Part shown: positions 1-18,700 of the stretch, piece after piece
Position numbering within the stretch: the first letter of the stretch is position 1
Layout: each line of letters starts with the position of its first letter
Assembly (NCBI RefSeq): GCF_000025685.1
Contig: NC_013966.1
Span: 60,001 to 92,000, forward strand
Length of the DNA stretch: 32,000 nt
Direction: 5' to 3'
From: Haloferax volcanii DS2
GTDB lineage: Archaea > Halobacteriota > Halobacteria > Halobacteriales > Haloferacaceae
Notes under the pieces: generated by a model
Databases searched by the model: none
Told to the model about the DNA's origin: nothing
What the model saw: only the letters and a program-made list of their open reading frames with translations
Made by a program: the position numbers and the translations under genes

Positions 1-1230
1 CCCGTTCTGTCCGCTGTCGGCGGAAGGCTCGTAATCGCCATTCACGTTCAACGCCCCGCGATTCAAGCGCACGTTTACGGGTGCGCCTCCGCCCGACGAC
101 TTTTGCGCCGAGCGGAGATACTTCAGGCCAATATTCTTCGCCGCGTTGTAGTCTGCGTGGGGCGAGTATCCACACTTCAGGCACTCGAATACGTTCTGCC
201 CGTCCGAGGTTGGACGGTTGTTCTCGTGGGTGAACCCGCACTTGGAACACCGCTGGGAGGTGTAGGCGGGACTCACTTGTTCGACCGAGATGCCGACCAC
301 TTCGGCCTTGTACTCGACATACTTGAACAGGCGTCGGAACGCCCACGCGTGGAACTTTTTGGCGTTGGGCATCCGCTCACGAATCCCCGTCAGGTTCTCG
401 AACGCGATCACGTCGCAGCCATACTCGACGGCTTCCGCAACGAGTTCCTTCGAGACAGTGTGTAAGAAGTGGTCGTACCGACCCGTCTCGGTGCGTCCAA
501 CCGACTGGATGGTTTCGTGGGCGGCCCGCGTGCCACGCTGGTGGAGTGACCCGCGCCGCTTCTCGAACTCGCGGTGCCAGTGATTCAGCTCCGACCCGTT
601 CCAGAATGTCCCTGTGGAGGTGACGGCGATGTTTTCGATGCCGAGGTCAACGCCGAGGACTGTGCTGTGCTCGTCGTTGCCGTCGTCGGTAGTCTCGAAC
701 TCCACGTCCGCCTTTGTTCGGACGTGAAGGTAGAACTCGCCGTCGCGGTAGTGCAGTTCTGCGCCCGTCACTTCGTAGTCGTCGTTGTATAGATACTCCG
801 AGTGTGGTGTCTCGCGGTTCTCGTCGGGGAGGACGTATTCGGCGGTGATTCGTCCTTCGACGGTCGAAAGCGTGGCGTGGTCGTCGTTGAACGTCGCACA
901 CCGCTTGTCGTAGACGAGCGTCGGGGCGGTGAAGTGCGGTTTTCCCGCGTAGTCACCGTGCTTCCACCGAGCGACGACGCTCTGTACGGCATCGGCGGCC
1001 TTGTTGCGGGCGTTCTGGACGAGATTCGCTTGAAGCCTCGTTTCGGCCCGCACGTCGTCGTAGGTTTCGCGTTGAAGTTCGGCTTTGCTCGTAGTCTTGT
1101 ACTCGCCTTGCCATGCGTGGTCGACGACGTAGTTGGCGGCCCACAGGAACTCGGAAATGGTTTCGCGGAGGAGGTCGGCGTCGCTGTCGGCCACGTCGAG
1201 TTTGACGGGGACGGTGCGACGTACCTCCAT
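1..1230 (-). CDS. tnpB: IS200/IS605-family (IS1341-type) TnpB-like RNA-guided endonuclease; C-terminus runs off the left window edge
   Basis: My translation of the minus strand from the ATG at 1230..1228 ([30 protein letters not shown]...) stays open for all 410 codons down to position 1. It is absent from the ORF track only because no stop lies in the window. RuvC-like contexts: [10 protein letters not shown] (rc of ~640-680), IAFENLTGI (rc of ~385-420), [10 protein letters not shown] (rc of ~125-160). A zinc ribbon CSKCG...CLKCG lies before the last motif. Confidence 0.85.
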
Positions 1231-1256
1231 CCGTGGTTCAGATGTAGTGCCATGTC

Positions 1257-1262
1257 TTTATA
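1257..1262 (-). promoter_or_regulatory. TATA-box-like element for tnpB (leaderless geometry)
   Basis: The minus strand reads TATAAA followed by 26 nt and then the tnpB ATG at 1230. This spacing fits archaeal promoters of leaderless mRNAs. Confidence 0.35.
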
Positions 1263-1403
1263 TTAGCCATGATTCGGTGGGAGTCGGTAACCCATCGAGC
1301 GTGGGTGGTACAGTATCGTGTCGGTTTCCTCTCCACACAATCGCTCGCTTCGCTTGCCCCGTGAGGGCGAAAGCTCCACCTTGCATCACGCTGAACGGCA
1401 TCG

Positions 1404-1709
1404 TCACGGGTTCGAGTCCGGTGGGCCACTCTCTTGATCATCGCGTGCTGCGACCGCGGCTTCGAGCTCTTCGAGGCGTTCCTCGTGGTCGTCGAGGCGG
1501 GCCTCCTGTTCGAGATCGATGCTGAGAAGCGCCGGCAGTAGCGGGTTCTGATGGTTCAACAGCCCGCTCGCGTCGGCGTGTTCGCGGGCGTACTCGAACA
1601 GCTGGTCAAATCGTGGCTGGTCGCGACGCCGCAGTGCCCGGCGGAACTCTGCCCACCGCTCTTCGATGGCCCGGAGCGCATCCCGGTACGTCGGGTTTGT
1701 GCGCCCCAT
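1404..1709 (-). CDS. small Arg/Glu-rich, probably helical hypothetical protein, coupled to the upstream RecA-like gene
   Basis: ORF track 1404..1742. I prefer the internal ATG at 1709 (MGRTNPTYRDALRAIEERW...) because it lies 2 nt after the TAG stop (1714..1712) of the upstream gene. No recognisable catalytic motif. Confidence 0.5.
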   Translation of the reverse strand: MGRTNPTYRDALRAIEERWAEFRRALRRRDQPRFDQLFEYAREHADASGLLNHQNPLLPALLSIDLEQEARLDDHEERLEELEAAVAARDDQESGPPDSNP

Positions 1710-1711
1710 CG

Positions 1712-2656
1712 CTATCGGCCTCCTGTCCCGGTCGCGGTCCACGCATCGAGCAAGGGGTCCGCAGTGGCCGCCACCGTCTCACCGTCAGCTGTGACACCCG
1801 TTCCGACACCCTCCGGAGTCGGCGTCGACGGCGTCGGAGTTGTCGGTTCCACGCCGACCTGCGTGGCGCGTGCCGCGAGCAGCTGCCGCCAGTACGCGAG
1901 CGTCGTCTGGTAGTACGCGCCGTCGTCGACGGGATAGACGAGCGTCTCGAAGTCCTCGCCGACGACCCGTGGGCCCATCCGCGTCTGTTCACACTCCAGG
2001 TGGTGGTCGGCGACCGTCGCGACTGGCTCGGTGAATTCGTTTCGTTCGTTTCGCGTAACGAGCACCGGGATGTCGTACCCCTCGGTGTAGGTCGCTAACC
2101 GGGCAAGGGTTCGAGCCTGGAGGGTTTTCGCGTGAGTCTCGCCAAGGGTATCGTCGGCGCGGTACTGGGCATCGACGGTCGGCGCGACGATGAGGGCGGG
2201 CGTATGGGACGACGTATCCTCGTCATGACTTGGTTCCCCTCGACCGGTCGTCCCGGCGTCGGTGGTGGACATCTGGATTACCTTATTTACCGCTGACGGG
2301 AGATCACAGACGGCGCCGTAGTGCTGGTAGGCGGTAAAACCGCGTGCCACGTGGATTCGGTTGAGCAACCGTTGACTGGGCGCGATCTGGGAGAGTGTCG
2401 TCGTCGTCGCGTGTCCATTTGCGTCGACCCAGAAGGTGGGCCCGTCGTGCAGGAGGAGATGGTCGAGCACGAGCGACTGCAGGATCGGGACGCCGCGGTC
2501 CCCCTCGACGTCGAGCAGCGTGATGCCGTCGTCGAGCTGCGGCAACAACATCTCGTCCGTAGCCGGATCGGCCTGGTCAGCGAGGGACCGATTGCGGTCA
2601 GCGCCCCGTGTCGGCTGGTCCACCGCCAATCGGTTCGATGTTGAGTGTTCTCCCAT
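1712..2656 (-). CDS. RecA/RadB-fold-like protein with degenerate Walker A; Thr/Pro-rich C-terminal tail
   Basis: 314-aa ORF. FWVDANGHATTTTLSQIAPSQRLLNRIHVARGF and ALIVAPTVDAQYRADD...YDIPVLVTRNE resemble the RecA/RadB core strands (xxYIDTE..., xxVVDS...R, xxVxxTNQ). The expected GxxxxGKT position reads VEGDRGVPIL, so there is no P-loop lysine. Confidence 0.6.
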   Translation of the reverse strand: MGEHSTSNRLAVDQPTRGADRNRSLADQADPATDEMLLPQLDDGITLLDVEGDRGVPILQSLVLDHLLLHDGPTFWVDANGHATTTTLSQIAPSQRLLNRIHVARGFTAYQHYGAVCDLPSAVNKVIQMSTTDAGTTGRGEPSHDEDTSSHTPALIVAPTVDAQYRADDTLGETHAKTLQARTLARLATYTEGYDIPVLVTRNERNEFTEPVATVADHHLECEQTRMGPRVVGEDFETLVYPVDDGAYYQTTLAYWRQLLAARATQVGVEPTTPTPSTPTPEGVGTGVTADGETVAATADPLLDAWTATGTGGR

Positions 2657-2772
2657 ACTTGACTAGTTGTCTACGTTCCCGATAAGCCGCGGCGTGGCGC
2701 TTCCGCGTTTCAGGGAAGGGCTGAAAGGTATGTAGAACCGGACTCAGGCAACAGATTTCTGCCATCGTTCGA

Positions 2773-2799
2773 CCGTTTCCGAGAACGTTTCCAGAGAGG
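2773..2799. repeat. composite motif CCGTTTCCG-N6-TTTCCAGAGA (copy 1 of 2; twin at 6418-6440)
   Basis: ccgtttccgagaacgtttccagagagg. It shares a 9-mer and a 10-mer in the same order with 6418-6440 (ccgtttccggaatttccagagat); only the spacer differs (6 vs 3 nt). Confidence 0.5.
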
Positions 2800-2820
2800 A
2801 AGGCAGACAGTATCGTCGGA

Positions 2821-2861
2821 TTAACCAACAGACCGGGGATTCCAACTCGATTGTTGGTTAA
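2821..2861. repeat. perfect palindrome TTAACCAACA-N21-TGTTGGTTAA (copy 1 of 2)
   Basis: Arms at 2821-2830 and 2852-2861 with a 21-nt spacer gaccggggattccaactcgat. The arms and spacer length are identical to those at 4461-4501. Confidence 0.9.
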
Positions 2862-2929
2862 GACTCCCTGAACGTAGGGTGATCTCGCCCTCACGTAATT
2901 CTGTTGACGGCCCCGCATATCCCCCGAGT

Positions 2930-3529
2930 CTACGATCTGATGTGATCGACGATTGTTCTCAGCGCGGTTACATCGTCGTTATTGTACTGTTTGAGTCGAT
3001 CCCAGTCTGGTTCTTCGCCGTCGAGGAGATATCGCGTGTACTTGCTCCCGACCACAAACCCGTCGACGGTCGGGTCTTGATATTCAAAGCCGAGTGCGCT
3101 CGCTACGACGTCCAATTTATGCCGATTGAAGGGCCCAAAGAGTTCCTGTTGGGCAGTAATCCCGAGGTCGTGTGCTCGCTCCAGATGGTCGATCCCCTCA
3201 GTAATGCCGTGTTCGTCGAATCTGCGACTGAGACACTGTTCGTCGAAGTAGTTCCCTCCGTAGTAGATGATCGGCTCGGAGCCATGATCATCAAGGTACT
3301 CAGACAGCTCCTGAAGAAGTGCTGACTCGTCGTCCGGCTCGAAGAATTGTCGGTACGCATCGTTCTGGTAGCTGTAGGTGCCGACCAGCCAGATCCGATC
3401 CTGCTGAAGATCCGTTTCTATGTCCAAGAGGAGAGGCTCCGTATCGTGAAGGTCGTCGAAGGCGGACTTGTTTAGAATCACGACCTCATCGTTTTCGAAA
3501 GCCTGTCGATGAGCAATCCACCGGTCCAC
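2930..3529 (-). CDS. RNase H-fold DEDD(Y)-type 3'-5' exonuclease-like protein (YprB/RNase_H_2-like)
   Basis: 199-aa ORF with a GTG start at 3529. Exo I LLLDIETD, Exo II-like GGNYFDEQCL, Exo III-like YNNDDVTAL. The start lies 3 nt downstream of the stop of the preceding gene (TGA 3535..3533). Confidence 0.8.
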   Translation of the reverse strand: MDRWIAHRQAFENDEVVILNKSAFDDLHDTEPLLLDIETDLQQDRIWLVGTYSYQNDAYRQFFEPDDESALLQELSEYLDDHGSEPIIYYGGNYFDEQCLSRRFDEHGITEGIDHLERAHDLGITAQQELFGPFNRHKLDVVASALGFEYQDPTVDGFVVGSKYTRYLLDGEEPDWDRLKQYNNDDVTALRTIVDHIRS

Positions 3530-3532
3530 GTG

Positions 3533-4375
3533 TCATGAAGAGGCTCCAGGGAGGGCTTCGAGTTCGGCACGCCGTTCTTCGGTAATTTCATCTGGGTTAG
3601 TGATCCCTAACTCACTGAACTGTTCTACTCGGTTTCTCCCGACCTGGACGAGATCAGTCAGGCGACTGCCTAGCAGATGGCGAGTGTCGTAGAACTCGTA
3701 TTCGATTGACTCGTTCGAGGCGTCGATGGTGATGAGTGCGTATCTTCCTGGGTCGTCTACTCCGTCGTGGGATGCGATGTTGATCACCGTGCCGTACTCG
3801 AGGGTTTCAGCTCTACCTCCGAATTGATGGCAATGACCGCAGACGGTAGCTGGGGGCTGGATGTCGTCTATAAAGCTCCTGACGGCCTTCGACCCGATAT
3901 GTTGTTGCCCGAATCGCTTCCCGATATCGAGAATGCCGAAGGGAGGAGTGTGTGTGACAAGAATCGGAGTTCTGTCTTCACAAGCGGTGCGGTGTTCGGA
4001 AAGGTGCCGTTGGACGTCGTCCTCGGTATAGGTGATGAGACCAGGTCCCTGGGTTGATCCTTCCTGGCCGATGAACACGAGATCCTCGTAGATGTATGGT
4101 GTCCTGTGGAGGTCGGTGGTAAATTCCGCATCGAACTGCGGGCCGGTTGACGGGGGGAAGTCGTCGTTTCCTCGGACATAGAGCGATTGTTGGTGCTTCG
4201 TGAGGCGAGCAAGTTCTGCAAGATGATCTGTGTCAGTATCGGCGTTTTTGAAACGTGAGAGGTCGTCGCCGGCATATAGTAGTAAATCTGGAGTTGGTTC
4301 TACAGTTTCGAGAATGGTGTAGAGATCGTCAATAGGTTGAGAGCGCCAGTCAGATACGGCGAGTATGTGGGTCAT
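3533..4375 (-). CDS. calcineurin-like metallophosphoesterase with C-terminal helix-hairpin-helix-like tail
   Basis: 280-aa ORF. MPE motif series: ILAVSDWRS (I), LLYAGDDLS (II), YVRGNDDF (III), ILVTHTPPFG (IV), VCGHCHQFG (V). The C-terminus DLVQVGRNRVEQFSELGITNPDEI looks HhH-like. Confidence 0.85.
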   Translation of the reverse strand: MTHILAVSDWRSQPIDDLYTILETVEPTPDLLLYAGDDLSRFKNADTDTDHLAELARLTKHQQSLYVRGNDDFPPSTGPQFDAEFTTDLHRTPYIYEDLVFIGQEGSTQGPGLITYTEDDVQRHLSEHRTACEDRTPILVTHTPPFGILDIGKRFGQQHIGSKAVRSFIDDIQPPATVCGHCHQFGGRAETLEYGTVINIASHDGVDDPGRYALITIDASNESIEYEFYDTRHLLGSRLTDLVQVGRNRVEQFSELGITNPDEITEERRAELEALPGASS

Positions 4376-4460
4376 TTTGTATGAGCGTAGTTAGTGTGGC
4401 CTCTTCTATCGTTTGTTTAGGTGTACCGTTTGTCATTAGGAGTTTTTCCGCCCGTTGTCG

Positions 4461-4501
4461 TTAACCAACAAATCAGGCTCATCGGTCAATCTGTTGGTTA
4501 A
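4461..4501. repeat. perfect palindrome TTAACCAACA-N21-TGTTGGTTAA (copy 2 of 2)
   Basis: Arms at 4461-4470 and 4492-4501 with a 21-nt spacer aatcaggctcatcggtcaatc. It lies in the divergent intergenic region between the phosphoesterase operon (start 4375, minus) and the SRAP gene (start 4556, plus). Confidence 0.9.
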
Positions 4502-4555
4502 TGGTGAGATTCCTGTGCGACCACGTTGAAGATGCCTCCCTCCGAACTCCTCGGT

Positions 4556-5242
4556 ATGTGTGGCCGGAACTCGCTCTTCATCGACCAAGCAGACCTTGAG
4601 GCCCGCTTCGAAGCCGAGGTCGTCGCGGACGGCGGGTACACCCCCCGATACAACATCGCGCCTGGCGACGACCTCCACATCATCACGAACGAGGCTTCCG
4701 ACGAGATCGACGCCTACCACTGGGGGCTGATTCCGTTCTGGGCGGATGAACCTGAGGAAGGCATCATCAATGCTCGCTCCGAGACTGCTGACGAGAAACG
4801 CGTCTTCGAGCGGGCGTGGGAATCACGTCCCTGCCTCGTCCCCTCGTCAGGGTTCTACGAATGGAAATCGCCGAACGGCGGGTCGAAGCAGCCCTACCGG
4901 ATTTACCGGGAGGACGACCCCGCATTCGCTATGGCCGGGCTCTGGGACGTCTGGGAGGGCGACGACGAGACGATCTCGTGCGTCACGATTCTCACGACGG
5001 AGCCGAACGACCTGATGAACTCAATCCACGACCGGATGCCGGTCGTCCTCCCGAAGGACGCTGAGTCCGACTGGCTCGCCGCAGACCCGGACACCCGCAA
5101 GGAACTGTGCCAGCCGTACCCGAAGGACGATCTGGACGCCTACGAGATTTCGACGCGGGTCAACAACCCCGGCAACGACGATCACCAGGTCATCGAGCCA
5201 CTGGACCACGAGCAATCGGGCCTCGGCGAGTTCAGTTCCTGA
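4556..5242 (+). CDS. SOS-response-associated peptidase (SRAP, YedK/HMCES family) abasic-site-processing protein
   Basis: The track ORF is 4526..5242. I place the start at ATG 4556 because the family hallmark is an N-terminal Met-Cys (MCGRNSLF...; Cys2 is the nucleophile). Also GFYEWK and HDRMPVVLP. Confidence 0.9.
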   Translation: MCGRNSLFIDQADLEARFEAEVVADGGYTPRYNIAPGDDLHIITNEASDEIDAYHWGLIPFWADEPEEGIINARSETADEKRVFERAWESRPCLVPSSGFYEWKSPNGGSKQPYRIYREDDPAFAMAGLWDVWEGDDETISCVTILTTEPNDLMNSIHDRMPVVLPKDAESDWLAADPDTRKELCQPYPKDDLDAYEISTRVNNPGNDDHQVIEPLDHEQSGLGEFSS

Positions 5243-5260
5243 TGGCTGACGGGGTCACCG

Positions 5261-6289
5261 TTACTGCATCGGCGACGCCGCCGCTGAATCGACGAGCGAG
5301 TACTCTCGGTCCCGACTCGTCCCTTCCGCCTCGAGGAGGTTGTACTGCTCCATTTTCGAGAGGTACGTGCGGATAGTCCGCTTCGTCCGCGGATCATCGA
5401 CGTCCTCGGTATAGCGCTCGTGAATCTCGCTCGGCCCGACTGGGCCGTGCTCGCGAACGATATCGTAGACGACCCGCTGATGGGGGGTAAGTGAATCGAG
5501 GCTCTTCTGCTTAATCTGGGCCCGAGCATCCTCGGCGGCGTCCAGGAGGATGTCGTCGGTGATGCGCTCGTGATTCTCGCGATCGGCCTTGCCGGCGGCC
5601 GTTCGGAGGATACCGATTGCGAGGCGGGCGTCGCCGGCGGCCGCGTCGGCGACCCGATAGAGCTGGTCGTCGGTGATGATGTCCTCGTCGAGTCCCCACT
5701 TCGCCCGCGCACTCAGGATGTCGTACAGTTGCTCGTCGTGGTACTTGTCCATCCGTACGTGCTCGCTGGAGCGTAGCCGACTCACGAGGCGATCATCGAC
5801 GCGGCCGAACAGCTCCTCTTCCTTGTTCGCGATGCAGATGATCGCGAACTGCGGGAGGCTGTGGAGGTCGTAGATGACGCTGGGGTCCTCCAGTTGGTCG
5901 ACTTCGTCGAGGATGACGACCGTTCGCGGACCGTCGTGTTGCTGAAGGCGGTCGACGAGTTCGTCGTGCGGCGTCGACTGCCGGTGGATGTCGATGGTCG
6001 CGCCGAGGTCGTCGAGGATCTGGTAGAGTGTCCGAAATCGGGTGTAGTTACGCCAGCAGTTGACGTAGGTGGCCTCGACGTCGAGGACCTCTTCGCGGAG
6101 CCGTTCGGTGACGAACTTCGAGATGCAGGTCTTGCCAGCGCCGCTGGGTCCGGTGACAATAGCGGTATCGGCGGGTTCACCGTTCGTGATGGGCTCGAGA
6201 ACGCTAGAGAGGTGGTTGACTTCGGCGTCGCGATGCTCAACTTCCCGAGGAACGAACCCGGCGCGGAGAACGCGAGCATCGCGAATCAT
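5261..6289 (-). CDS. cdc6: Orc1/Cdc6 family replication initiator
   Basis: 342 aa. Walker A GPSGAGKT, Walker B VVILDEVDQL, and a C-terminal winged-helix region (LTPHQRVVYDIV...TIRTYLSKMEQYNLLE). ATG at 6289..6287. Confidence 0.95.
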   Translation of the reverse strand: MIRDARVLRAGFVPREVEHRDAEVNHLSSVLEPITNGEPADTAIVTGPSGAGKTCISKFVTERLREEVLDVEATYVNCWRNYTRFRTLYQILDDLGATIDIHRQSTPHDELVDRLQQHDGPRTVVILDEVDQLEDPSVIYDLHSLPQFAIICIANKEEELFGRVDDRLVSRLRSSEHVRMDKYHDEQLYDILSARAKWGLDEDIITDDQLYRVADAAAGDARLAIGILRTAAGKADRENHERITDDILLDAAEDARAQIKQKSLDSLTPHQRVVYDIVREHGPVGPSEIHERYTEDVDDPRTKRTIRTYLSKMEQYNLLEAEGTSRDREYSLVDSAAASPMQ

Positions 6290-6339
6290 CTATATCTGGT
6301 AGACTGATTTTCAGGCTAGTAGTAAAAACGTGACCGGGT

Positions 6340-6440
6340 CGCTTCCGGAAAGCAATTTCAATGGAGAGAGGACTCGATTGTCTACTCGCTGTATAGCGGT
6401 TTGTTTGTGGAAACATCCCGTTTCCGGAATTTCCAGAGAT
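6340..6440. other. candidate origin or control region with ORB-like repeats upstream of orc1/cdc6
   Basis: TTCCGGAA occurs at 6343-6350 and 6422-6429. Inverted repeat GGAAAC-ATCCC-GTTTCC at 6409-6425. TGTGGAAAC resembles the archaeal mini-ORB core. Short A-rich run at 6316-6330. Composite motif at 6418-6440. Confidence 0.3.
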
Positions 6441-6481
6441 ACGGACATCAATCTCGTTGCATAAGAGCCTGTATCAGCTTA

Positions 6482-6730
6482 TCAGGATACAGAGCCGTCA
6501 TCTTCGTTGATGGGGGGCCGGAGATCGCGCCATCGAAAATCTGCGGTTTCTCCAGAGGTGAGAGAGACTCGATAGAGGTGCTCGTCCCGTTCATCACCAG
6601 TCACCGCTTCAGCATCGTCAGTCAGTATTGTAACAATGTGACCGTGTACTCCATGATACTGCTCGTGGTCAGGATCTGTCTCGTCTGGAATATCAATCCG
6701 GACACGGTCCCCTTTCGAGAAGCGCTGCAT
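6482..6730 (-). CDS. small acidic hypothetical protein (possible SH3/KOW-like barrel)
   Basis: 82-aa ORF, ATG at 6730. It starts MQRFSKGDRVRIDIPDE... and is highly acidic, like the genuine proteins of this replicon. No catalytic motif. Confidence 0.55.
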   Translation of the reverse strand: MQRFSKGDRVRIDIPDETDPDHEQYHGVHGHIVTILTDDAEAVTGDERDEHLYRVSLTSGETADFRWRDLRPPINEDDGSVS

Positions 6731-6822
6731 TGAGATTCAGTACGGCATCGACCACAATTAGTCCATATGATTCAGCTCAGGGTCTATCGGGGAGCGGATT
6801 GGGCGCTCATCAGCGGCATACC

Positions 6823-6828
6823 TTTATG
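6823..6828 (+). promoter_or_regulatory. TATA-like box for the McrB-like gene
   Basis: TTTATG followed by 26 nt and then ATG 6855. This supports ATG 6855 over the GTG at 6837 used by the ORF track. Confidence 0.35.
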
Positions 6829-6854
6829 ATCCTCGTGTGTTGGATTTCGATAAT

Positions 6855-9800
6855 ATGGTTGCTACTTCGTCTGAGGATATTGAAGACCTAATCGACCGAT
6901 ACCGTGACAAACACGACTGGGAGCGAGACAAAGCTCACGTTCAGAATACTTCTAAGGTAATCCGTCAATTGGTACAGGCCATCGTCGAGACGGGATCTGT
7001 CGACGAGTACGCCATGCGCACAGTGTACAACCTGTGCCAGAACGATGACGCTCTCCAACCAGAGAACAAGAAGGAACGAATTGACAATCTCGACATCGAT
7101 TCCACCGCGAAGTCCGAGATTAAGGAGCGGATTGATGAAGGGACAGGTATCGTTGGGAAAGGAACATACTCGGTGCCAATTGAAGGCCATGAGGAAGAGG
7201 CATTTAACCTCCTTTCAACCGCGATCAGGTCCGATAATCGTGATGAGATTGACCCCGCGATAGAAGAATTCGCCAACCTCGAAATTGAAGGGATACAAAA
7301 CGGAATTATCTCCCCAATCCTCTACTTCCTCCATCCAACAAAATACCCGATCAGTAACCACCGCTCACGAACGGGTATGCAGAAGTTCTTTGGCTATGAG
7401 ATGTCCGGTCGACTCACTTCTTATCTAACTGAGGTCGAGAAATTCCATGAAGTTCGTGCGGACTATCCGTTCAAAAACGACTTTCGACATCTGGATAGCT
7501 TCTTCAATTGGGTTGAGGAACAGGAATCGGTCTTAGGTGAGCAATCTACGAAGCCAGTCGCAGAGATATCTGATGATGCCAATCTCTATTGGGTGAATCA
7601 ACATAACCCACCAGAAATCGAGGAAGAGTATCTCAGAGCCAAGACTGACGGACTTTGGCATCACAATTTAGATAAGTTATCCATCGGTGACGTGGTCTTC
7701 CATAACTTCGATAACGAACTGATAGGCATTTCGACCGTTATCGAGAATGCCGAGACGTACACATCCCGAGATGAAGAATACTATCGGGTTGAGGTTGATC
7801 TACGCTCGTTTGGAGAACCAGTACCTGTTGACGACGACTTGAAAAAGAGGCTCGGACAGGATCAATATCGGACTGAAAAGTACTACTCCATCGATAAGAA
7901 CGGTAACCTCAATGAAGCCTATCTGGCGAACCTATCCCGATCTGCAGCGGAGTTTCTCCTGAGTCAGGTAGACTCAATTGAGGAGTCTGAAACCCCTGTG
8001 GAAACTTCAGGATCTCCAAGAAGGATCTGGCAAATCACCCCCGCGAGAGGCGGCGAATATTGGGGTACGTGGATGCAACATGGAATTGCGTCCATCGGAT
8101 ACGGACTCGATCATAAGGTGACGAACGATGTAGCGGACATCGACGATGTCGATGAGCTGTCTGATGGAGAACTCGTCGAAATCGCCGCGGAGGCCGGCGA
8201 CAACCATGGTCGTGGTATGGCATACCGCTTCCAGTACGAAATCGACGAGGGCGATGTGATAATCGCCAAACAGGGACGTACCTCAGAATCCGATATTATC
8301 TATGGGATCGGTATCGTTACGGCTGCCCACCGTGAGAAGAGCTATCCTGAAATCAACCATTCAGACGTCGTCAGCGTTGACTGGAAGGTGACTTTTGGGG
8401 AAAGTGGGGTGGATATTGATGTTGGTAGTGATTCCGATTCGATCAAGACGTACACACTAGATACCCTTGATCCAGAGTACTACCGCGACCTCACGTCAGA
8501 ACTCGCCGACAAAGGAGATGTAGATCGCGACGAACTCCTTGCCCTCGTCTTTGATGAGCTATCTCAGGATGATGAGGGTGAAACGACGGACGAAGGCACG
8601 AACCATTACTGGATTTCAGCGAATCCTTCGATTTGGAAAGTCGAAAGCATCGAAGACGGTGATGAGGTTTTCTATACGGCGTATAATCGAAAGGGGAACA
8701 AACGTCGAATCTTTGGAGCGTTTGAGGAGGCGTCTCCTGGTGACAAGGTGCTGTTCTATGAGTCCCAGCCCGTCCAAGCCATCGTGGCAGAAGGAACAAT
8801 TCGGGAAGGGCTCCACAAAGATGAACACGAAGAGTACGATGAACCGGTCGACGGAATCACTATTGAGTACAGCCGAGCTATGGAAACTATATCGTGGGAT
8901 CAGCTTACCGCAGTCCCGGATCTGGAGGATGCCTCTCCAATCAGAAACCGAGCACAAGGAAGCCTCTTCCCCCTTACCGAAGACGAGTTCGAAACCATCC
9001 TCGCACTAGAGGATCCGATTGAAGACGGTGTCTCACAGGACGCCATTAATCAACTCAAAACAAAACTCACTTCTCCGGAGGTCGATGTCTCGATTCCCAA
9101 CAGTCTCTACTTCGATGATGCTGACCGACTTCGACGCGAGATCGAAGCTTCACTCCGGTCTGGAAAGCACCTCATCTTTACCGGACCACCGGGCACCGGG
9201 AAGACAAAACTAGCAAAGGCAATCTGTGAATCCGCTACGACCCACGAGCAAGTCGACGATTACAGGTTCACGACTGCGACCTCTGAATGGACTGCGTTTG
9301 ATACGATTGGTGGATATGTTCCTTCTACGGGCGACGGTGGACAGGAACTCCTGTTCGAACCCCGGCTTTTCCTCAAGTGTTTCCGGCAAGACCGAGTCGT
9401 CAACGAGTGGCTCATCATCGACGAAATCAATCGATCAGACATCGACAAAGCCTTCGGACAGCTCTTTTCCGTTCTGTCTGGCGATTCAACCGAACTCCCA
9501 TACGAACGCGATCGAACCGTCGAACTTCGCTCACTTTCCAATTCAACAACTGACGAAGAGCTCGCCGAAATTATTGGGAACCCAGACGCCTTCCCGGTTA
9601 CCCCTTCGTGGCGGCTAATTGCTACAATGAACACGTACGACAAAACCTCGCTGTACGAAATGTCGTACGCATTTATGCGCCGTTTCAACTTCGTCCACGT
9701 CGGCGTTCCACCGCTCACCACCGATGACGGGGTCCGAACCTCACTCCTCGATCCAGACGGGACTGACAATTACGCGACTGCGTGGCTCGCCGATGATGAG

Positions 9801-10151
9801 TCTCTCCGACCAATTCTCGCAGACGTGTACCCTGTCGTAGCAGTTCTGTGGCAACGTATCAATGAACATCGCGTCATCGGTCCCTCTATCGTGTACGATA
9901 TCATCCGGTATCTCGGCTCATACGATGACGCCGGCGGATCACGGAAAGACGCGCTCACGTCCGCTGTCGTTTCCCTCGTCTACCCGCAATTGGAGGGTAT
10001 GAGACCAGAACAGCAGAAACAATTGATTCGGTCACTCACCGATCAGAACGTCGCTACCGAAAACGGACCTGTAACACTTGATCTTGACAAGTCGTTACTC
10101 CAGCAAAAAGCGGCTGACTTCTTCGGTATCACGTTCGACGATGACGCATAG
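6855..10151 (+). CDS. mcrB: McrB-family AAA+ GTPase with a long N-terminal extension: helical domain plus three PUA/EVE-like modules
   Basis: Walker A GPPGTGKT (9183-9206). Walker B/McrB box LIIDEINRSDIDKAFGQLF (9411-). McrB signature ATMNTYDKTSLYEMSYAFMRRF (9627-). Three modules of YW/IW...GD-hydrophobic-strand type at ~7581-7826, ~8022-8396 and ~8601-8996. Confidence 0.9.
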   Translation: MVATSSEDIEDLIDRYRDKHDWERDKAHVQNTSKVIRQLVQAIVETGSVDEYAMRTVYNLCQNDDALQPENKKERIDNLDIDSTAKSEIKERIDEGTGIVGKGTYSVPIEGHEEEAFNLLSTAIRSDNRDEIDPAIEEFANLEIEGIQNGIISPILYFLHPTKYPISNHRSRTGMQKFFGYEMSGRLTSYLTEVEKFHEVRADYPFKNDFRHLDSFFNWVEEQESVLGEQSTKPVAEISDDANLYWVNQHNPPEIEEEYLRAKTDGLWHHNLDKLSIGDVVFHNFDNELIGISTVIENAETYTSRDEEYYRVEVDLRSFGEPVPVDDDLKKRLGQDQYRTEKYYSIDKNGNLNEAYLANLSRSAAEFLLSQVDSIEESETPVETSGSPRRIWQITPARGGEYWGTWMQHGIASIGYGLDHKVTNDVADIDDVDELSDGELVEIAAEAGDNHGRGMAYRFQYEIDEGDVIIAKQGRTSESDIIYGIGIVTAAHREKSYPEINHSDVVSVDWKVTFGESGVDIDVGSDSDSIKTYTLDTLDPEYYRDLTSELADKGDVDRDELLALVFDELSQDDEGETTDEGTNHYWISANPSIWKVESIEDGDEVFYTAYNRKGNKRRIFGAFEEASPGDKVLFYESQPVQAIVAEGTIREGLHKDEHEEYDEPVDGITIEYSRAMETISWDQLTAVPDLEDASPIRNRAQGSLFPLTEDEFETILALEDPIEDGVSQDAINQLKTKLTSPEVDVSIPNSLYFDDADRLRREIEASLRSGKHLIFTGPPGTGKTKLAKAICESATTHEQVDDYRFTTATSEWTAFDTIGGYVPSTGDGGQELLFEPRLFLKCFRQDRVVNEWLIIDEINRSDIDKAFGQLFSVLSGDSTELPYERDRTVELRSLSNSTTDEELAEIIGNPDAFPVTPSWRLIATMNTYDKTSLYEMSYAFMRRFNFVHVGVPPLTTDDGVRTSLLDPDGTDNYATAWLADDESLRPILADVYPVVAVLWQRINEHRVIGPSIVYDIIRYLGSYDDAGGSRKDALTSAVVSLVYPQLEGMRPEQQKQLIRSLTDQNVATENGPVTLDLDKSLLQQKAADFFGITFDDDA

Positions 10152-11505
10152 TCTCGCCGTAGAGGAACTCGTTAACGCCACCAGCGAAGAGCTGGGTACG
10201 TACTTGCGAAGCGGCGCGCTGAACACAAACGCACTCACGCGCTCACTCGATTACGAAGGCCTCGATATTGAGGACTGGGAGCGTATCAAACGCATCCATT
10301 TCTGTCTCGCTGACGACGTCCACGACTTCATCAGCGCCCTTTCTGACCGCGTTCGACGCATTAAGACCGAACATCAACGTGAAAACATCCATACGCAAGG
10401 GGAAGTCCGTGGGTCGATCAACTGGAGCGCTACACTCCGGACCCGCTCCGAATCCGGCTACGCAGATCGTAGCCGCTTCGTCTGCAACACCCCCTATACA
10501 GAATACGATATTGCAGAAAACCGCGTCTTGAAACGTCTCCTGTGGCAAATCCACCGCACAGTTACAGACGAACTCCAGAGCGTTGAGTACGATTGGCGGC
10601 AGGAATTCTGGACCGATGACCAGCTCGCCAGCTTCGACCGGCTGTACAAACAGAATGTCCACCTGAGCCGCATCAAAGAGGGCCCGGCAATCTCCGTTTC
10701 CGGACAGGACATGACCACTGCTCGCCAGTCACGCCTCCCGCTCTACACCGAAGCCTACGACCTCTACGATATGTTCCAACGCCTTCAAGCCGACACGCTC
10801 GACGCAGATATCACGGAACTCCTGGCAGACACACTCGTTGTTCCGACAGACACACCAACTCTCTTCGAACTCTTCTGTTGCTTCCGCCTTATCCGAACAC
10901 TCACCCGATTCACTCCTGGTTTCGTCCTCAAACCAATCGACGGAGAAAGTAACGCACTCGCGCACCTCGAATCAGACGACACTCGCATCGAAATCCACCA
11001 TGACAGTACCGGTAGTCTCAGTTTCCACGAACCACTCGATACAACACACCGTCCGGTACACGCACAGTATGCACGATATCACGACGCTCTCATCGACTAC
11101 AGTGACACGCTCGAAGCACTCACAGGTGACCCAAGCGATCCAGTCCTATACAATGGCCGTCCCGACATCATCATCGAAATCTACGACACCACATCCGACG
11201 AAAGACTCGACTCCGTACTCCTCGGTGAAATAAAACACTCCGATGCGACACAGACCTTCAAACAAGGTCTCGAAGAGCTTCTCACTTACCGACGTTTCGC
11301 CAGTAAGGACAATTACCTCATCGACAAACCGGACATCACACTCACCAGCCTTCTGATCACCAACGGCGTTACTACATCTGGAACCAGCGACGAAGTTATC
11401 CACCTCAACGGAACAGACCTCATCGACTCCCCCGCAACGCACTCCAAACATTTGGACTGGATTCACTCACTTTCTGGATTGCCCGCGACTCCAAGCCGGG
11501 CATAG
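10141..11505 (+). CDS. mcrC: McrC-like PD-(D/E)xK nuclease partner
   Basis: ATG 10141 (MTHSLAVEEL...) overlaps the McrB-like stop (10149-10151) by 11 nt. C-terminal nuclease motif RPDIIIEIY...LLGEIKHSD (about 11158-11238). ENRVLKRLLWQI in the N-terminal half. Confidence 0.8.
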   Translation: MTHSLAVEELVNATSEELGTYLRSGALNTNALTRSLDYEGLDIEDWERIKRIHFCLADDVHDFISALSDRVRRIKTEHQRENIHTQGEVRGSINWSATLRTRSESGYADRSRFVCNTPYTEYDIAENRVLKRLLWQIHRTVTDELQSVEYDWRQEFWTDDQLASFDRLYKQNVHLSRIKEGPAISVSGQDMTTARQSRLPLYTEAYDLYDMFQRLQADTLDADITELLADTLVVPTDTPTLFELFCCFRLIRTLTRFTPGFVLKPIDGESNALAHLESDDTRIEIHHDSTGSLSFHEPLDTTHRPVHAQYARYHDALIDYSDTLEALTGDPSDPVLYNGRPDIIIEIYDTTSDERLDSVLLGEIKHSDATQTFKQGLEELLTYRRFASKDNYLIDKPDITLTSLLITNGVTTSGTSDEVIHLNGTDLIDSPATHSKHLDWIHSLSGLPATPSRA

Positions 11506-11551
11506 TACTCAAGTAAGAAACTAACTTGATGGAACGGACCCCTAACTCGGC

Positions 11552-11947
11552 CTAGGATGTGTTGCCGTCCAGGTGTCCCGCAAGGGCGATATCCGCCTCA
11601 GTAACGGTCTCTGGATCGACTAACTCAATCTCTTCTGTGAGCTTATGATGGATCCTACGAATCGTTCCGTTAGTCCCGTATCGACGCCGTCTACGGTGGA
11701 TCGTACGCAACTGGCCCTCTGCCCAGTCGCTCATTTCGTGATCATTCAGCAGCTCGAGAATCTCTTCCGCTTCACCATTCACATCTTCGTCGCTGTCTGC
11801 AATCTGTCGACATAGCTGTTTGATATCGGTAACGACATCGCTGTCTCCGCTTTGCCGACTCAAAATATCGTTCTGCCATGTACTGGGTGTGCCAAGCTCA
11901 CCAACGAAGGACTTCAGCTCCTCAAAGTCATCTTCGGGGCATGCGTT
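11552..11947 (-). pseudogene. 5'-truncated orphan ORF abutting the IS
   Basis: The track ORF 11552..11863 begins at a TTG. By hand the frame stays open upstream to 11947 (NACPEDDFEELKSFVGELGTPSTWQNDIL...) with no ATG or GTG, and it ends in the IS terminal repeat. Confidence 0.4.
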
Positions 11948-13384
11948 CTAGTTTAGTAGCGATCAAAGCCGAACTCACCTCGTTCAACCTGCTCACGTAA
12001 CCGATCTCTGTGTGGATTTGGATTTCGTGACGCCCACAGCAACAGCTCGTCCAAATCCGGCAGTTCGTAGCCCAGCTCAACCATGAGATACAGTTGGATC
12101 AGATGACCGTGGCGTTCCACGGCGAGCGAACAGCGACGCCGAGGGAGCCGCGACGCCGACGAGTCGGCGTCTGCGGCGGCTTCGCCCTCTCGCTGTCTTG
12201 CCTCAAGTGACCGCAACTCATCCACGATTACACGACTCATCATCAACGAAATTGCGGCCATGATGATCAGCGCCTCGATGATGTAGCCGTCGGTCGTCTT
12301 GATCTCGTCCAAGCCGAACCGCGACTTCAACTCCTTGAACAGCAGTTCGACCTCCCAGCGCGCCCGATAGAGCTGCGCGATATCGGGCGCGCTGTAGCTT
12401 TCTCTCGCCAGATTCGTCAGATACAGATGATACTCGTCGGTCTTCTCGTTACGTAGTCCGACCAGTCGAAACGTCCGGGTCGCGCTGGCGCCCGACCCTC
12501 GTTTGCGCTCGAACGAGAGCGTGATGCGGACGTCGATCTCCTGTCGCTGCAGGTCGTCGAGGACGGCCTGCAGCGACTCTCCTTCCAGCGGAATGCTGTT
12601 GCCTCGCCACGTTCGCAGTTCTTCGACAATCTCGAAGTTCGCGTCGTCTTTGACACGAGAGACGAACCAACCGTCGTTCTTGTCGATGCGGTCGAACAGC
12701 CAGAAGTCGTAAAAGCCCAAATCAAGGAGAATGAGGGCGTCAGCTACCCACTCGCCGGTGGGTAGCTGACTCCGTTCATGAGTCGTCCCATCGGTTGTCC
12801 GGAATCGTGTCGGGAGCCCAGTCGAGAGAGATTCGGTGAGGTGAAGTTTCAGTTCGGCTTGATGGTCGCCGGTTGCTGTGTAGATATCAGCGGCGTCCTG
12901 GTACAGCGAAACGATGGTTGCGTCAGCAATGAGGACGTCTCGAAAGCGTTCGAGACGGCCGTTCAAATCTTCTCGTCCGGTATCGAGATTCTCGATTGCG
13001 TCATCGAGAATCTCTCGAAGGAGTGCAACGAATCCTGGTTCGAACCAGTCGTGGAACGATGCGTAGGAGAGTTCGTCACAGTCAGCCATCTCGACGTAGC
13101 GTTCGAGAAATGCTTGGAGAGAGCGGTCTGAGCCAGCAGCGAAGCCAAACGAGAGTGTGTAGAACAGCGCAACGATGTCGAATTTCCGCTCTCGTTGGAC
13201 GAGATTCGTTGCGCGAGCGCGCTCGCGCAACTCATCAGAGGGAAACGCTCTTTGAATCCGGTCAACTATGACCGAATCCGGTGGGCTGTAGGTCATACTT
13301 CCCACCGGGTTTCTCAATCAGGTAGTTGCGACGATATCAAATCAACAGACAGCAACTGGATTCTTTGTTAAACTAGAACGGATG
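11940..13384 (-). mobile_element. IS4-family (ISH8-like) insertion sequence, copy A
   Basis: Perfect 11-bp terminal inverted repeat GTTCTAGTTTA (11945-11955 / complement 13369-13379). It extends outward imperfectly to CATGC / CATCC. Boundaries are uncertain by a few nt, and I found no flanking direct repeat. Confidence 0.8.
11953..13296 (-). CDS. IS4-family DDE transposase (ISH8 group)
   Basis: The track ORF starts at a TTG (13317). ATG 13296 (MTYSPPDSVIVDRIQRAF...) aligns with the N-terminus of the paralogue at 19038. Conserved DVLIADATIVSL, LDLGFYDF, YRARWEVELLFKELK. Confidence 0.9.
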   Translation of the reverse strand: MTYSPPDSVIVDRIQRAFPSDELRERARATNLVQRERKFDIVALFYTLSFGFAAGSDRSLQAFLERYVEMADCDELSYASFHDWFEPGFVALLREILDDAIENLDTGREDLNGRLERFRDVLIADATIVSLYQDAADIYTATGDHQAELKLHLTESLSTGLPTRFRTTDGTTHERSQLPTGEWVADALILLDLGFYDFWLFDRIDKNDGWFVSRVKDDANFEIVEELRTWRGNSIPLEGESLQAVLDDLQRQEIDVRITLSFERKRGSGASATRTFRLVGLRNEKTDEYHLYLTNLARESYSAPDIAQLYRARWEVELLFKELKSRFGLDEIKTTDGYIIEALIIMAAISLMMSRVIVDELRSLEARQREGEAAADADSSASRLPRRRCSLAVERHGHLIQLYLMVELGYELPDLDELLLWASRNPNPHRDRLREQVERGEFGFDRY

Positions 13385-15701: not shown

Positions 15702-18700
15702 TTTCGAGCCTCTCCAGATCAACTCCGTAGAGCTCTGCGACAGCCTCGTCAAGCTCTCGGTCTATCTCTTCGATGGCGTCCATATCGGGGTCGTCTAAAA
15801 CGTCGGGTCGCTTTTTCTGGATTTGAATCGCATCTTCCACCAACCCGACTATTTTCTCCTTCTCGTCGTCGTCCGGGATTTTGATCGGGAGACGACGCAC
15901 GTCCCGTGTCGATAGCCCGATTCGATTGAGGAAATTCTTAGCGATATATCCGGAGAAAGTGGAGTTGAGGATGGCCATCATATACTTCAGGTCAGCTTTC
16001 TCCTCGTCGATACTGAAGAAGACAAGATTTGTATTCGTAAACACAGATGGCTCAATCATCCGGCACTCCAGATTTCTGACACCACCTCCTTGCTTCGTTG
16101 CGATTCCCTGATTCAGGTAGTACTGGTCGTTCCGAGGAACTCCTTGATCCTTGAGCTTATCGACGTTATCGCGCGACCAGTCCACGAACTCGTCAGTCGG
16201 ACAGAAATAGAGATCACGACTTTTGCTTTCCCTTGTCACCTTCACGAAGGTCCGGTTAGCATCATTAGCAACGCCATGTAACTTCTCTTCCTCAGAGAGC
16301 TGACTGGCATCGTGTATAACCTTCTCTTCTTTGACCGTCTTGTAGAGTTTACTCCGGCTATAGGAATCTTCCTCCTCAATTCGTTTGGCCTTTTTTGTCC
16401 CCTCTAATACGTGGATAAAGTCCTTATTCGTTCTCATTGAGATACCCTGTCCACCGACAGTCAGCAGGCCGAAGGGGAGAATTTCTCCGGGACTTGTCTC
16501 TTGTATCAGGGATTCTACCTCTGGCAGACTTTTTTCAAGGTTTGATGTGTCTGCGATCTCATTTTGCCAGCGGTCGTAGACTGAATTAAACGGCGCGATG
16601 AATTCTCCGAATATCTCGGTGTTAAGCTCTGTTGGGGTAAAGAATGAGTTATTTATCGACTTTCTATAGAGTTCCCTATTCAACTGATAGATGGTGTGTT
16701 CCCCTAGATTTGATCGCTTGGTCTCATACGATACTTCTCCGATTGAGACAGAGTACGATTCATCGTAGTCAATAGGCGTCAACAATTGCGGATATGACTT
16801 AATATCGACATCATAGCTATCGTTGAGTCGTACTTCGTTCGACTTGTTGCCGGACTTACTCAGTGAGAATATTGCTGTCTCCACGGATGCATCAAAGGCA
16901 TCCGGGTTCACCCGAGTCAGTTCGTCCAACTCGTCAAGTAGAGTGGATCGAACGTCAGTTTTGTTTATTTGGGTGAAGAAGGTATCCGACATTATGTATG
17001 TGAATACTCCATCGCTATTGGCGAGCTCGTATCCACGGTGGACGAAAAATTGGAAAAGATCTGTTTTAGAGTAGTACCTGAACCCTTCTTTTTCCGAGTA
17101 GAAATCTCCAAGTTCGCCCTTGTATTCTGCTCCTTCCTGACCCTCGTACGGTGGGTTTCCAATGACGATATCAAAGCCACCGTCCAGAATCACCTCCGGG
17201 ATATTCGTAGTCCACGTAAAGGTAGAGTCCGCTGCTTCTGCCGCTTCAGTCATCCAGCCTCCCTTCTCTTTCACAGCTAACTGAGTTTCCAGTTCCGTTG
17301 TGAGCTTTTCCAACTGATCGCTAAGGCGGTCCTTATTCTTGCCGTGTGCAGTCTGGAACTCCTTCCGCGTCTTGTGAATTTCGTTTAGCGTACTATTGAG
17401 TCCGCCAGTTAGCGTCTCTTGGTAGGAACTAACGTCCACACGTGTCGGGTCGTATTCGCCGACGAGGCTATTCCCGACAAAGAACTTGAATCCAAGGTTT
17501 GGCAGGGCGAACTTCTGGTTGGCCTCAAGGAACTCCTCGTGACTCACATGCTTGAGATCCTGCATCAGGTGGAGCCAAACTCGAAATTTACACATTTCGA
17601 TGCCGGCAGCATCAATGTCGACACCGTAGAGAGTGTCTGCAATAAATTCCTTCTTGAGTTGGAATCGACTTCGGTCGTCGCCACGGCTGGAGTCCAGCGC
17701 CTCTGATACCGCGACAAGCTCCTCCAGCATAGCGATAATGAACGCACCGCTACCTACCGCTGGGTCTAATACGGTCGCGGAACGGAGTGCCTCGTCGATG
17801 GCCTCAATCTGGCTGTCAGAGAGGGACTCAGGTGTAGTGTGATCGGTTACTAGCGATACCGCCTCCTCGTTTGTGATGTCCGTCTGCCCCAGCAAGTGCT
17901 GCTTAAGAGCATTTTTTGTCATATAGGAGGTAATCGGCTTCGGTGTGTAGAATGCACCCAGATCAGCGCGGTCGTCCTTCTGCATAAACATCTCAAAGAT
18001 GCGCCCGATGAACTCTGGGTCAACAACGAGTTCCTGCTCGCTTGGGTTCGACTCGCGCAGGGAGATCTTGTATCGTCGGAGGAGCCCCTCTGGGTTACCG
18101 GAGCTGTTCTTTTCTGGGCTGAGGAGTTTATCGAAGAATACCTCGTCGATTTCGACATTCTTCTCTATGTCCTTGCGCTCAAAGAGTCCGCCGTTGAGGA
18201 AGGGTATTCGACCGAGTGTGTCGGACTCAGTCGTCCCTTCCTCTGAGAGTGCTTCGAAGAACAACGGCTCGAAGAAATCTTCGTAGACGTGCATATCAGG
18301 ATCTTCGGCCACCTCTTCGTACTTGTTCTCGACGTAGTCCACATCCCCGTCAAGCCACTTCTTCTCCTCAATAAACAGCAAGAATAGGACTCGATTGACG
18401 ACCGTTCGCGTGTATGCATTGAGGTTCTCCTCCGGATCCTTTAAGCCGTGAATCGCATCCTGAAGATCCTCGCGGAATATCTCCCCGAAATCCTGGTAGA
18501 AGCTCCGCGTGATCTCCCGAATGGAGAAGACTTCCTCAACATCGCCTTCGAGACTCGCTCGACCCTGTCCAGAGTCCACGGAGAGGTCGTCAAGATAGTC
18601 GAGATACGCAGGTTCGACGCCGAATCGTTTGACCGTGAAGTAGTTGAGATCGAAGGTCACCTCAACGTCTTCTGAAGAGAACTGCTCCTCAATATGAAGG

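Follow-up and report, generated by a model that had tools for sequence, protein, structure and literature searches.

Background

Stoperators of cluster A mycobacteriophages are asymmetric repressor sites of 13-14 bp with a fixed orientation to transcription, many of which lie in short intergenic gaps, including those of co-directional operons. In the IncP-1 plasmid RK2, the operators of KorB and KorA are scattered over the plasmid backbone (PMC3199767, PMC11790492). AbiEi-AbiEii is a type IV toxin-antitoxin (TA) system in which AbiEi represses its own operon via cooperative binding to paired inverted repeats (PMC3985639, PMC7319586). The halovirus HF2 contains intergenic repeat units of 58 bp and 29 bp that are conserved throughout and are themselves promoters (with B recognition element (BRE), TATA box and initiator), and their reading by sequence-specific virus factors has been proposed (PMC8707807). 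Here we describe a palindrome, TTAACCAACA-N21-TGTTGGTTAA (two arms around a spacer of 21 nt), found twice in a 32-kb stretch of Haloferax volcanii DS2 (contig NC_013966.1, positions 60,001 to 92,000 of the forward strand; "the window", whose own positions are used below). We propose that it is probably the operator of a small protein of the family DUF6788, whose genes it accompanies in Archaea and Bacteria.

The palindrome has something in common with each of these systems. Like the stoperators, it is found in many copies in short intergenic gaps of mobile genomes (here the virus ChaoS9 and a caudoviral contig), but it is symmetric and bipartite. Like the HF2 units it is a conserved intergenic repeat in a haloarchaeal virus; however, its sequence is different, only its two 10-bp arms are conserved and no shared promoter element was found in spacer or flanks. 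CCAAC/GTTGG is absent from the description of the HF2 repeats, and the single CCAAC match in that paper belongs to a cloning-linker oligonucleotide (PMC8707807). The likeness to KorB and KorA is one of organization: a single plasmid-encoded regulator would act on a palindromic operator at many intergenic positions, at varied or long distances from promoters, and would tie together replication, maintenance and accessory modules (compare plasmid NZ_CP119795.1, with 8 sites in 113 kb). DUF6788 is nevertheless unrelated to KorB, without a ParB/CTPase fold or a helix-turn-helix, its half-sites are 31 bp apart while KorB has a compact 13-bp palindrome, and the host is archaeal. As for AbiE, the bacterial DUF6788 operon also encodes a small protein of DNA-binding type followed by a protein with a nucleotidyltransferase fold, with two inverted-repeat copies over the promoter. 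But the first gene is DUF6788 and not the winged helix-turn-helix (wHTH) AbiEi, the second is NTP_transf_8 (PF12281) and not AbiEii/DUF1814, and the haloarchaeal DUF6788 genes are mostly alone, with the operator spread to many other intergenic regions. No PADLOC or NCBIfam match to catalogued TA or defence families was obtained for the bacterial DUF6788 and NTP_transf_8 proteins. Judged from the sequences, membership of the DUF6788 pair in the AbiE or KorA/KorB families fails on homology.

Repetitive extragenic palindromes (REP), miniature inverted-repeat transposable elements (MITE) and the attC sites of integrons are also multi-copy extragenic palindromes, often located right after a stop codon, and a stop inside the conserved end is a feature of the attC inverse core sites as well. 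An earlier note on this DNA, made from its letters alone, had foreseen that the motif might prove to be a widespread MITE-like repeat. Widespread it is, but not MITE-like. Its non-orthologous copies have no interior sequence, target-site duplication or longer stem in common. Unlike these elements, the palindrome is conserved across a whole class and into Bacteria and not within a species, it has no RAYT or IntI partner, and cassette boundaries fall outside its arms.

Two copies of the palindrome in the window

The two copies consist of the following parts, none of which has an assigned strand.

2821..2830, left half-site of copy 1, TTAACCAACA; exact match, arm invariant in all related instances
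2831..2851, spacer of copy 1, 21 nt, GACCGGGGATTCCAACTCGAT; free in sequence, constrained in length alone
2852..2861, right half-site of copy 1, TGTTGGTTAA; exact match
4461..4470, left half-site of copy 2, TTAACCAACA; exact match
4471..4491, spacer of copy 2, 21 nt, AATCAGGCTCATCGGTCAATC; from sequence comparison and orthologue alignment
4492..4501, right half-site of copy 2, TGTTGGTTAA; exact match, invariant in 10 of 11 orthologues

The exact pattern occurs at these two places only (2821-2861 and 4461-4501), with 0 copies expected from 100 dinucleotide-preserving shuffles of the window, and no third copy appeared in the window when up to three mismatches were allowed. The arm 10-mer is confined to the four arm positions, and with one mismatch it has a single window match, at 25663, where 0.64 are expected. 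The spacers of copy 1 and copy 2 are unrelated in sequence, and the orthologous spacers of copy 1 in two related loci (L007 and L121) are different again and 22 nt long. The earlier note had reported two identical palindromes with 21-nt spacers of unrelated sequence, and this description holds, as do the distances that it gave. Copy 2 is 86 nt from the ATG of a phosphoesterase gene (4375) and 55 nt from that of a SRAP gene (4557), while copy 1 comes 69 nt behind the stop of an RNase_H_2 gene (2930) and is 165 nt from the ATG of a gene for a 314-aa protein (p314; 2656). The note had also proposed selection on the arms and their spacing. The narrow range of spacer lengths and the arms of the orthologous copies confirm this, but its figure of two helical turns needs correction, as the half-site centres are 31 bp apart, i.e. 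about three turns.

Distribution and constraints of the motif

Genomes (one per species) were scanned with the arms fixed and the spacer free at 15-30 nt. At least 120 stretches matched, nearly all of them from Halobacteria, and a scan of IMG/VR added 53 further, viral stretches. With the exception of one bacterial locus (L102, see below), the matches outside haloarchaea were discarded as chance: one was in the frr coding region and three were long terminator-type hairpins with other spacings. Two other non-haloarchaeal matches had off-range spacings. No cis-element of haloarchaeal plasmids and viruses seems to be more widespread than the palindrome, which has 2-8 copies per replicon. Full-text literature searches found no paper on the palindrome or on DUF6788, and the genome papers of the viruses ChaoS9 and PhiH1 do not mention the motif.

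Spacer length is strongly restricted. Among the 136 further instances listed, 4 spacers have 19 nt, 19 have 20 nt, 63 have 21 nt, 43 have 22 nt, 5 have 23 nt and one has 24 nt; the range is therefore 19-24 nt, with 78% at 21-22 nt, and none of 15-17 or 25-30 nt was found in the haloarchaeal set among the matches listed. The same instances have no common spacer sequence; A is weakly preferred at inner positions 1 and 2, and AT content rises slightly towards the centre (the GC content of the spacers is 51%). Conservation does not extend the arms inward or outward. Position profiles, k-mer enrichment and AT-rich window scans revealed no universal co-motif in flanks or spacer; TATA-like sequences were mildly enriched 35-50 nt beyond the arms. 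Lone half-sites numbered 0 in the loci searched for them. In 12 of 15 copies with a single mismatch the change is confined to the innermost base of one arm and the partner arm is intact, so that the variants are non-compensatory. The 11 orthologues of copy 2 have invariant arms save for one innermost base; 13 of 22 spacer columns are invariant, and the rest of the spacer and the 5 nt just outside the arms vary. Because the arms are conserved, the spacing is constrained, the variants are non-compensatory and half-sites were not found alone, the palindrome is most simply read as double-stranded DNA by a factor that would recognize two half-sites of 9-10 bp about three helical turns apart.

The genes around the sites are very diverse and include ArdC, DUF6610, a tandem-wHTH regulator, terminase, orc1, xseB and DUF262 among others. 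The earlier note had suggested searching other genomes and recording which genes the motif precedes; the motif is indeed found widely, and its only constant partner is DUF6788. Contexts across 192 copies, based on our own gene calls, comprised 75 sites between tandem genes, 30 between divergent and 18 between convergent genes. The complete plasmid NZ_CP119795.1 (113 kb) has 8 copies, all intergenic, and one DUF6788 gene; typically, a copy follows a stop codon by 0-19 nt and precedes the next ATG by 53-150 nt, or else it separates divergent genes. Virus ChaoS9 combines three copies with a single DUF6788 gene, gp49, which directly follows one of them; the other two overlap the ends of orc1 and gp80. 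Of the two copies on a 23-kb caudoviral contig, the first is found between terL and the gene before it, terS, and the second behind a tail gene. The TAA within the arm is the stop codon of an ArdC-like gene, of a hypothetical gene and of ChaoS9 gp80 (L176 11652-11693 and 39583-39624; L217 45387-45427; L218 4589-4630), and the stop of ChaoS9 orc1 is a TGA just inside the spacer, so that these genes run straight into the site. In ChaoS9 a palindrome, gp49 and int2 adjoin (L217 33055-34059), and in Halogeometricum pallidum (L056 427-846) a DUF6788 gene (474-794) is bracketed by palindromes at 427-467 and 804-846.

Association with DUF6788 genes

The gene most often adjacent to the palindrome encodes a 107-aa protein (MSYEPPTPP…INDNRYYYWQWREGDK.SKYKGPV) whose ATG is 13-15 nt after an arm and whose database relatives form PF20586 (DUF6788), a family of unknown function. 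When all fetched loci were searched with a hidden Markov model (HMM) of the family, 31 distinct DUF6788 genes emerged. An exact palindrome is located 10-23 nt upstream of the ATG in 28 of them, one more has a copy with one mismatch, and another, on pNRC200 (see below), keeps the right arm only. As these loci had been chosen for containing the motif, two blind samples were added. For the first, eight DUF6788 genes were taken from plasmids at even steps down a tblastn ranking. Six have the site 13-18 nt upstream (four exact and two with one mismatch), including one whose protein is only 37% identical; one of the remaining two has a variant palindrome and the other none.

The second blind sample concerns Bacteria. 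In L102, a metagenome-assembled genome of Candidatus Auribacterota, a DUF6788 gene has two tandem exact copies 11 nt upstream and, behind it, a gene for an NTP_transf_8 nucleotidyltransferase. Five homologues of the L102 protein were fetched by protein identity only; in every case a tandem pair of N20 palindromes precedes the DUF6788 gene, and in 4/5 loci an NTP_transf_8 gene comes after it in the operon. In L228, the one locus scanned for promoters, a σ70-like promoter (TTGACA-17-TAGATT) overlaps the gene-proximal palindrome, with a GGAGG Shine-Dalgarno sequence and the ATG next to it. The DUF6788-NTP_transf_8 (PF12281) operon was found in Auribacterota, Omnitrophota and other uncultured bacteria (L228-L232, L102), sometimes beside AbiEii-like pairs. 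From its gene content this bacterial pair looks like an uncatalogued module of the toxin-antitoxin or abortive-infection type.

In haloarchaea the DUF6788 gene is usually solitary, and its putative promoter is also covered by the palindrome. The left arm is at the expected position of the BRE, a conserved, TATA-like YTAWG occupies spacer positions 4-8, the expected place of a TATA box, and 1-2 nt beyond the right arm there is a conserved CA, which is probably the transcription start. A leader of 12-14 nt with a GGAG-like motif leads to the ATG.

Furthermore, the arms change with the protein. Bacterial DUF6788 proteins 75-100% identical to that of L102 use TTAACCAACA, while those 61-64% identical use TTACCCAACA…TGTTGGGTAA. 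A divergent haloarchaeal subfamily (38% identity) has GTTACCCCACA-N17-…GTGGGGTAAC abutting the ATG in Haloplanus and Halorarius. The three arm variants TTAACCAACA, TTACCCAACA and TTACCCCACA track the protein subfamilies, with both arms altered in most copies and mixed copies in L230 and L231; the variant pattern TTACCCCACA-N17-23-TGTGGGGTAA had a single, unrelated match in IMG/VR. The palindrome is thus tightly associated with DUF6788 genes and their promoters in two domains of life and co-varies with them. On plasmid pNRC200 of Halobacterium salinarum NRC-1 the DUF6788 gene VNG_RS11815 keeps only the spacer and the right arm (L175 8880-9010), and the 18 kb searched there contain only one palindrome site, with one mismatch. 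In front of VNG_RS11815 the left arm has given way to GTGATCGACT, next to an unannotated gap of 1.6 kb, which makes this gene a naturally occurring half-operator mutant of a model strain.

Sequence searches against PDB, NCBIfam, PHROGs and PADLOC were uninformative. The AlphaFold model of DUF6788, of moderate confidence (mean predicted local distance difference test score 70), has N-terminal helices (14-52) and a C-terminal beta-sheet of three strands (73-103), joined by an acidic linker that is disordered; the sheet carries the invariant motif YYY..R…Y. An "integrase-arm/AP2-like" fold can only be guessed at, as integrase arm-binding domains appeared solely among non-significant Foldseek matches.

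The family HMM found no DUF6788 gene in the 32 kb of the window, and its two copies are therefore "orphan" sites. In at least 10 related plasmids a DUF6788 gene lies 4-10 kb from this cassette, beside orc and PolB.

A proposed operator of DUF6788

We think it probable, at roughly two chances in three, that the palindromes are binding sites (operators) for a dimer of the ~107-aa DUF6788 protein and that the window copies are orphan sites of the same kind. DUF6788 is the best candidate for the binder because the site is found on archaeal and bacterial promoters, accompanies the DUF6788 gene and changes as the protein diverges; moreover, a site present on the promoters of both domains cannot be a basal promoter element. 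The identity of the binder, the geometry of its binding and the sign of regulation at orphan sites are what we infer from this association. One DNA-binding domain of the dimer would occupy each 10-bp half-site (TTAACCAAC[A/g]). With centres 30-32 bp apart, about three helical turns, the two half-sites would face the same side of the DNA. Two sheets tethered to a helical dimer could explain both the reach of 31 bp and the tolerance of spacers of 19-24 nt. At the DUF6788 gene itself the site would wrap the core promoter, resulting in negative autoregulation. In haloarchaea, a protein on both arms would keep TFB and RNA polymerase away, while in bacteria the site spans from the -35 box to the transcription start, implying the same autorepression, and the tandem pairs could allow two dimers to bind cooperatively, by which distant sites might then also be bridged.

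On haloarchaeal plasmids and viruses, copies of the site would have spread to the intergenic stretches that link gene modules. The binder of the window sites would be encoded outside the 32-kb window, and the orphan sites could put p314-PolB, phosphoesterase-RNase H and SRAP under one plasmid-borne regulator, acting by repression, roadblock, insulation or cooperative bridging. A repressor, roadblock or insulator fits better than a proximal operator, because the distance to start codons is variable and the sites lie right after upstream genes. The earlier note had proposed a shared operator tying three DNA-metabolism units into one regulon. The operator part stands, in that the selected arms and spacing are those of an operator-type double-stranded site; the regulon does not, as the sites are flanked by dozens of unrelated genes. 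More tentatively, and we would sooner doubt than assert it, DUF6788 might be an unrecognized DNA-binding family of Bacteria and Archaea, with a three-stranded beta-sheet head on a flexible tether, once the autorepressor, or antitoxin-like partner, of a nucleotidyltransferase operon, whose operator was amplified into a class-wide network with a KorB-like role. One small protein might in such a case silence, insulate or bridge blocks of mobile DNA, for instance by pairing the window sites, 1.6 kb apart, around phosphoesterase-RNase H.

Several observations weigh against DUF6788 as the reader of these sites. Its link to the palindrome is associative. The orphan sites have no fixed start-codon distance (13 to ~165 nt) and 18 of them are between convergent genes. 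The phosphoesterase module occurs without any palindrome in 9 loci, so that the palindrome is not needed for phosphoesterase expression. In L233, the closest relative of the window, the local DUF6788 is of a variant type and the site upstream of p314 is canonical with one mismatch; a canonical protein would therefore need to be supplied by a different replicon. At about 8 loci the divergent neighbour is a tandem-wHTH MarR-like gene, whose product could be what binds there. No DUF6788 gene was found on the 23-kb caudoviral contig with two sites, which is probably an incomplete genome. Finally, Foldseek gave no significant relative of the DUF6788 model in PDB (best E-value 0.9).

Alternative explanations

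The palindrome could be bound by another factor, either the tandem winged-helix MarR-like protein (MarR_2 + HVO_A0261_N + HVO_2833_C) or a conserved host protein, the DUF6788 gene being simply its commonest target. At the loci just mentioned, 83-84 nt separate the palindrome from the start of the tandem-wHTH gene, which is opposite DUF6788, and pNRC200 shows the same neighbourhood of the two genes. The caudoviral contig has sites without a DUF6788 gene, and arms identical throughout a class are what a conserved host factor would produce. Still, the wHTH family is present in merely 10 of 168 loci, the bacterial operons carry the site without a wHTH neighbour, their constant partners being only DUF6788 and the nucleotidyltransferase, and the arms co-vary with the DUF6788 sequence. 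We therefore regard this explanation as unlikely. Recognition by Orc1/Cdc6, as an origin-like or regulatory origin recognition box (ORB) for the adjacent short Cdc6 gene, is suggested by the presence of an Orc1/Cdc6 gene in 42/168 loci and beside the window cassette. However, orc genes abound on these plasmids in general, the Orc proteins near the palindromes share just ~25% identity with each other while the arms are invariant, the bacterial loci with the palindrome have no Orc, and neither a G-string/ORB-like sequence nor an AT-rich unwinding element is found in the spacer, all of which leaves this reading with hardly any probability.

Two other readings extend proposals of the earlier note. 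One is that the palindromes are recombination or module-junction sites, delimiting a mobile cassette exchanged by a recombinase or by microhomology. The sites are in fact at mosaic junctions: between p314 and SRAP, related plasmids have an "empty" arrangement with one palindrome between the divergent genes (L112), or a DUF262 insert in place of phosphoesterase-RNase H between two palindromes, and 338 pairs of instances share one flank while 59 share both. Moreover, "Inversion 2" of PhiH1 relative to PhiCh1 (nt 31,932-34,126) starts 7 nt before the DUF6788 homologue PhiH1_250, beside Int2 (PMC6210493). But the homology breakpoints are outside the arms, at 4506-4523 for the SRAP module (6-22 nt beyond the arm) and at 2717/2795 for the p314 module (26-104 nt short of it), and the phosphoesterase-RNase H module recurs as window 2930..4423/4435 in 39 metagenome loci, a span that excludes both palindromes, with no palindrome within 3 kb in 9 of the 39. 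Since the breakpoints miss the arms and the module excludes the palindromes, these belong to variable linkers between modules and are not crossover points. Besides, no integrase family is among the commonest neighbour families (Int2 is adjacent in ChaoS9 and PhiH1 only), the spacers, where crossover would take place, are unrelated between sites, and the bacterial site overlaps the promoter of a two-gene operon. Cassette exchange as the function of the sites is thus improbable, although their mosaic position and the boundary of the PhiH1 inversion leave room for a secondary role in rearrangements. The other reading, a hairpin of RNA or single-stranded DNA (a module boundary, terminator, processing site or REP-like element), finds some support in the possible 10-bp stem, in RNA folding z-scores of -1.3 to -2.6, i.e. 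of moderate stability, and in the many copies 0-20 nt after a stop codon, some containing the stop. Yet no U-tract follows the stem, the loop of 21-22 nt is unstructured and nevertheless constrained in length, the stem is strictly conserved instead of co-varying, the 12 variants described above being non-compensatory, Rfam gives no match, and 30 copies lie between divergent genes. A hairpin is accordingly very improbable.

Genes and linkers around the palindromes

The surroundings of the two copies are as follows.

1712..2656, minus strand, gene of the 314-aa protein (p314), heading a conserved p314-p112-...-PolB module; copy 1 is 165 nt upstream of its ATG
2681-2686, minus strand, TATA-like CTTATC upstream of p314, from the sequence
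2775..2786, minus strand, GTTCTCGGAAAC, another short element, located ~35 nt away from the palindrome and conserved in every p314-upstream linker
2862..2929, no strand, variable linker from copy 1 to the RNase_H_2 stop, outside the phosphoesterase-RNase H module that recurs elsewhere, whose homology with loci lacking the palindrome stops at 2930
2930..4423, minus strand, module of phosphoesterase (a metallophosphoesterase, 3533-4375) and RNase_H_2 (2930-3529) with its own upstream region of ~48 nt, from Pfam hits
4436..4460, no strand, variable linker from the phosphoesterase promoter region to copy 2, from homology breakpoints and orthologue alignment
4557..5242, plus strand, SRAP gene, which is the transcription unit closest to copy 2 on its right side (Pfam SRAP, E = 2.6e-68; the protein begins MCGR)
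5261-6289, minus strand, short Orc1/Cdc6 gene, 342 aa, convergent with SRAP

The protein p314 had been labelled "RecA-like" in the earlier note, a label without support: sequence searches of Pfam, NCBIfam and PDB gave no family match. Outside GTTCTCGGAAAC the p314-upstream linkers, of ~100 nt, cannot be aligned, yet their length is constant at 96-104 nt. The distance from copy 2 to the SRAP ATG, 55 nt in the window, is 67-68 nt in three other loci (L054, L112 and L011). On plasmid NZ_CP119795.1 (L121 2967-4310) the phosphoesterase and RNase_H_2, separate in the window, are annotated as a single fused open reading frame of 447 aa.

At least 100 plasmids, belonging to many haloarchaeal genera, match window positions 1391-6351 with ~93% identity, which places the window in the backbone of a haloarchaeal megaplasmid. 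The p314-p112-(161 aa)-PolB and SRAP-Cdc6 modules (window 1-2717 and 4510-6351) are ~93% identical across more than 100 plasmids, which points to a recent horizontal spread of both modules among haloarchaeal plasmids. The region upstream of the Orc1/Cdc6 gene (6290-6836) has a lower GC content and two CG(C/T)TTCCGGAA repeats, at 6340 and 6419, and may be a plasmid origin. It is followed by a stretch (6837-20336) that resembles a defence island, with a McrBC-like system, a PLD-helicase/Eco57I-type restriction-modification system and transposases, and contains the following genes.

6837-10151, EVE+AAA_5 McrB-like protein
10078-11505, McrC-like partner
11953-13317 and 19038-20336, DDE transposases
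13368-15752, PLD/SNF2-helicase
15691-18957, Eco57I-type methylase

Implications

The palindromes of the window should be read neither as the boundaries of a mobile cassette nor as evidence of a DNA-damage regulon. What the comparison across genomes suggests is an operator and regulator pair of palindrome and DUF6788 on mobile elements, with an unusual reach across domains and a bipartite geometry. The family PF20586, with more than 1,500 clusters at 90% identity in the haloarchaeal branch alone, would gain a concrete role and an exact DNA target. If the binding is true, it would give a handle on how mosaic megaplasmids coordinate their replication, repair and defence modules, and it would provide a portable operator-repressor pair already at work with archaeal and bacterial promoters.

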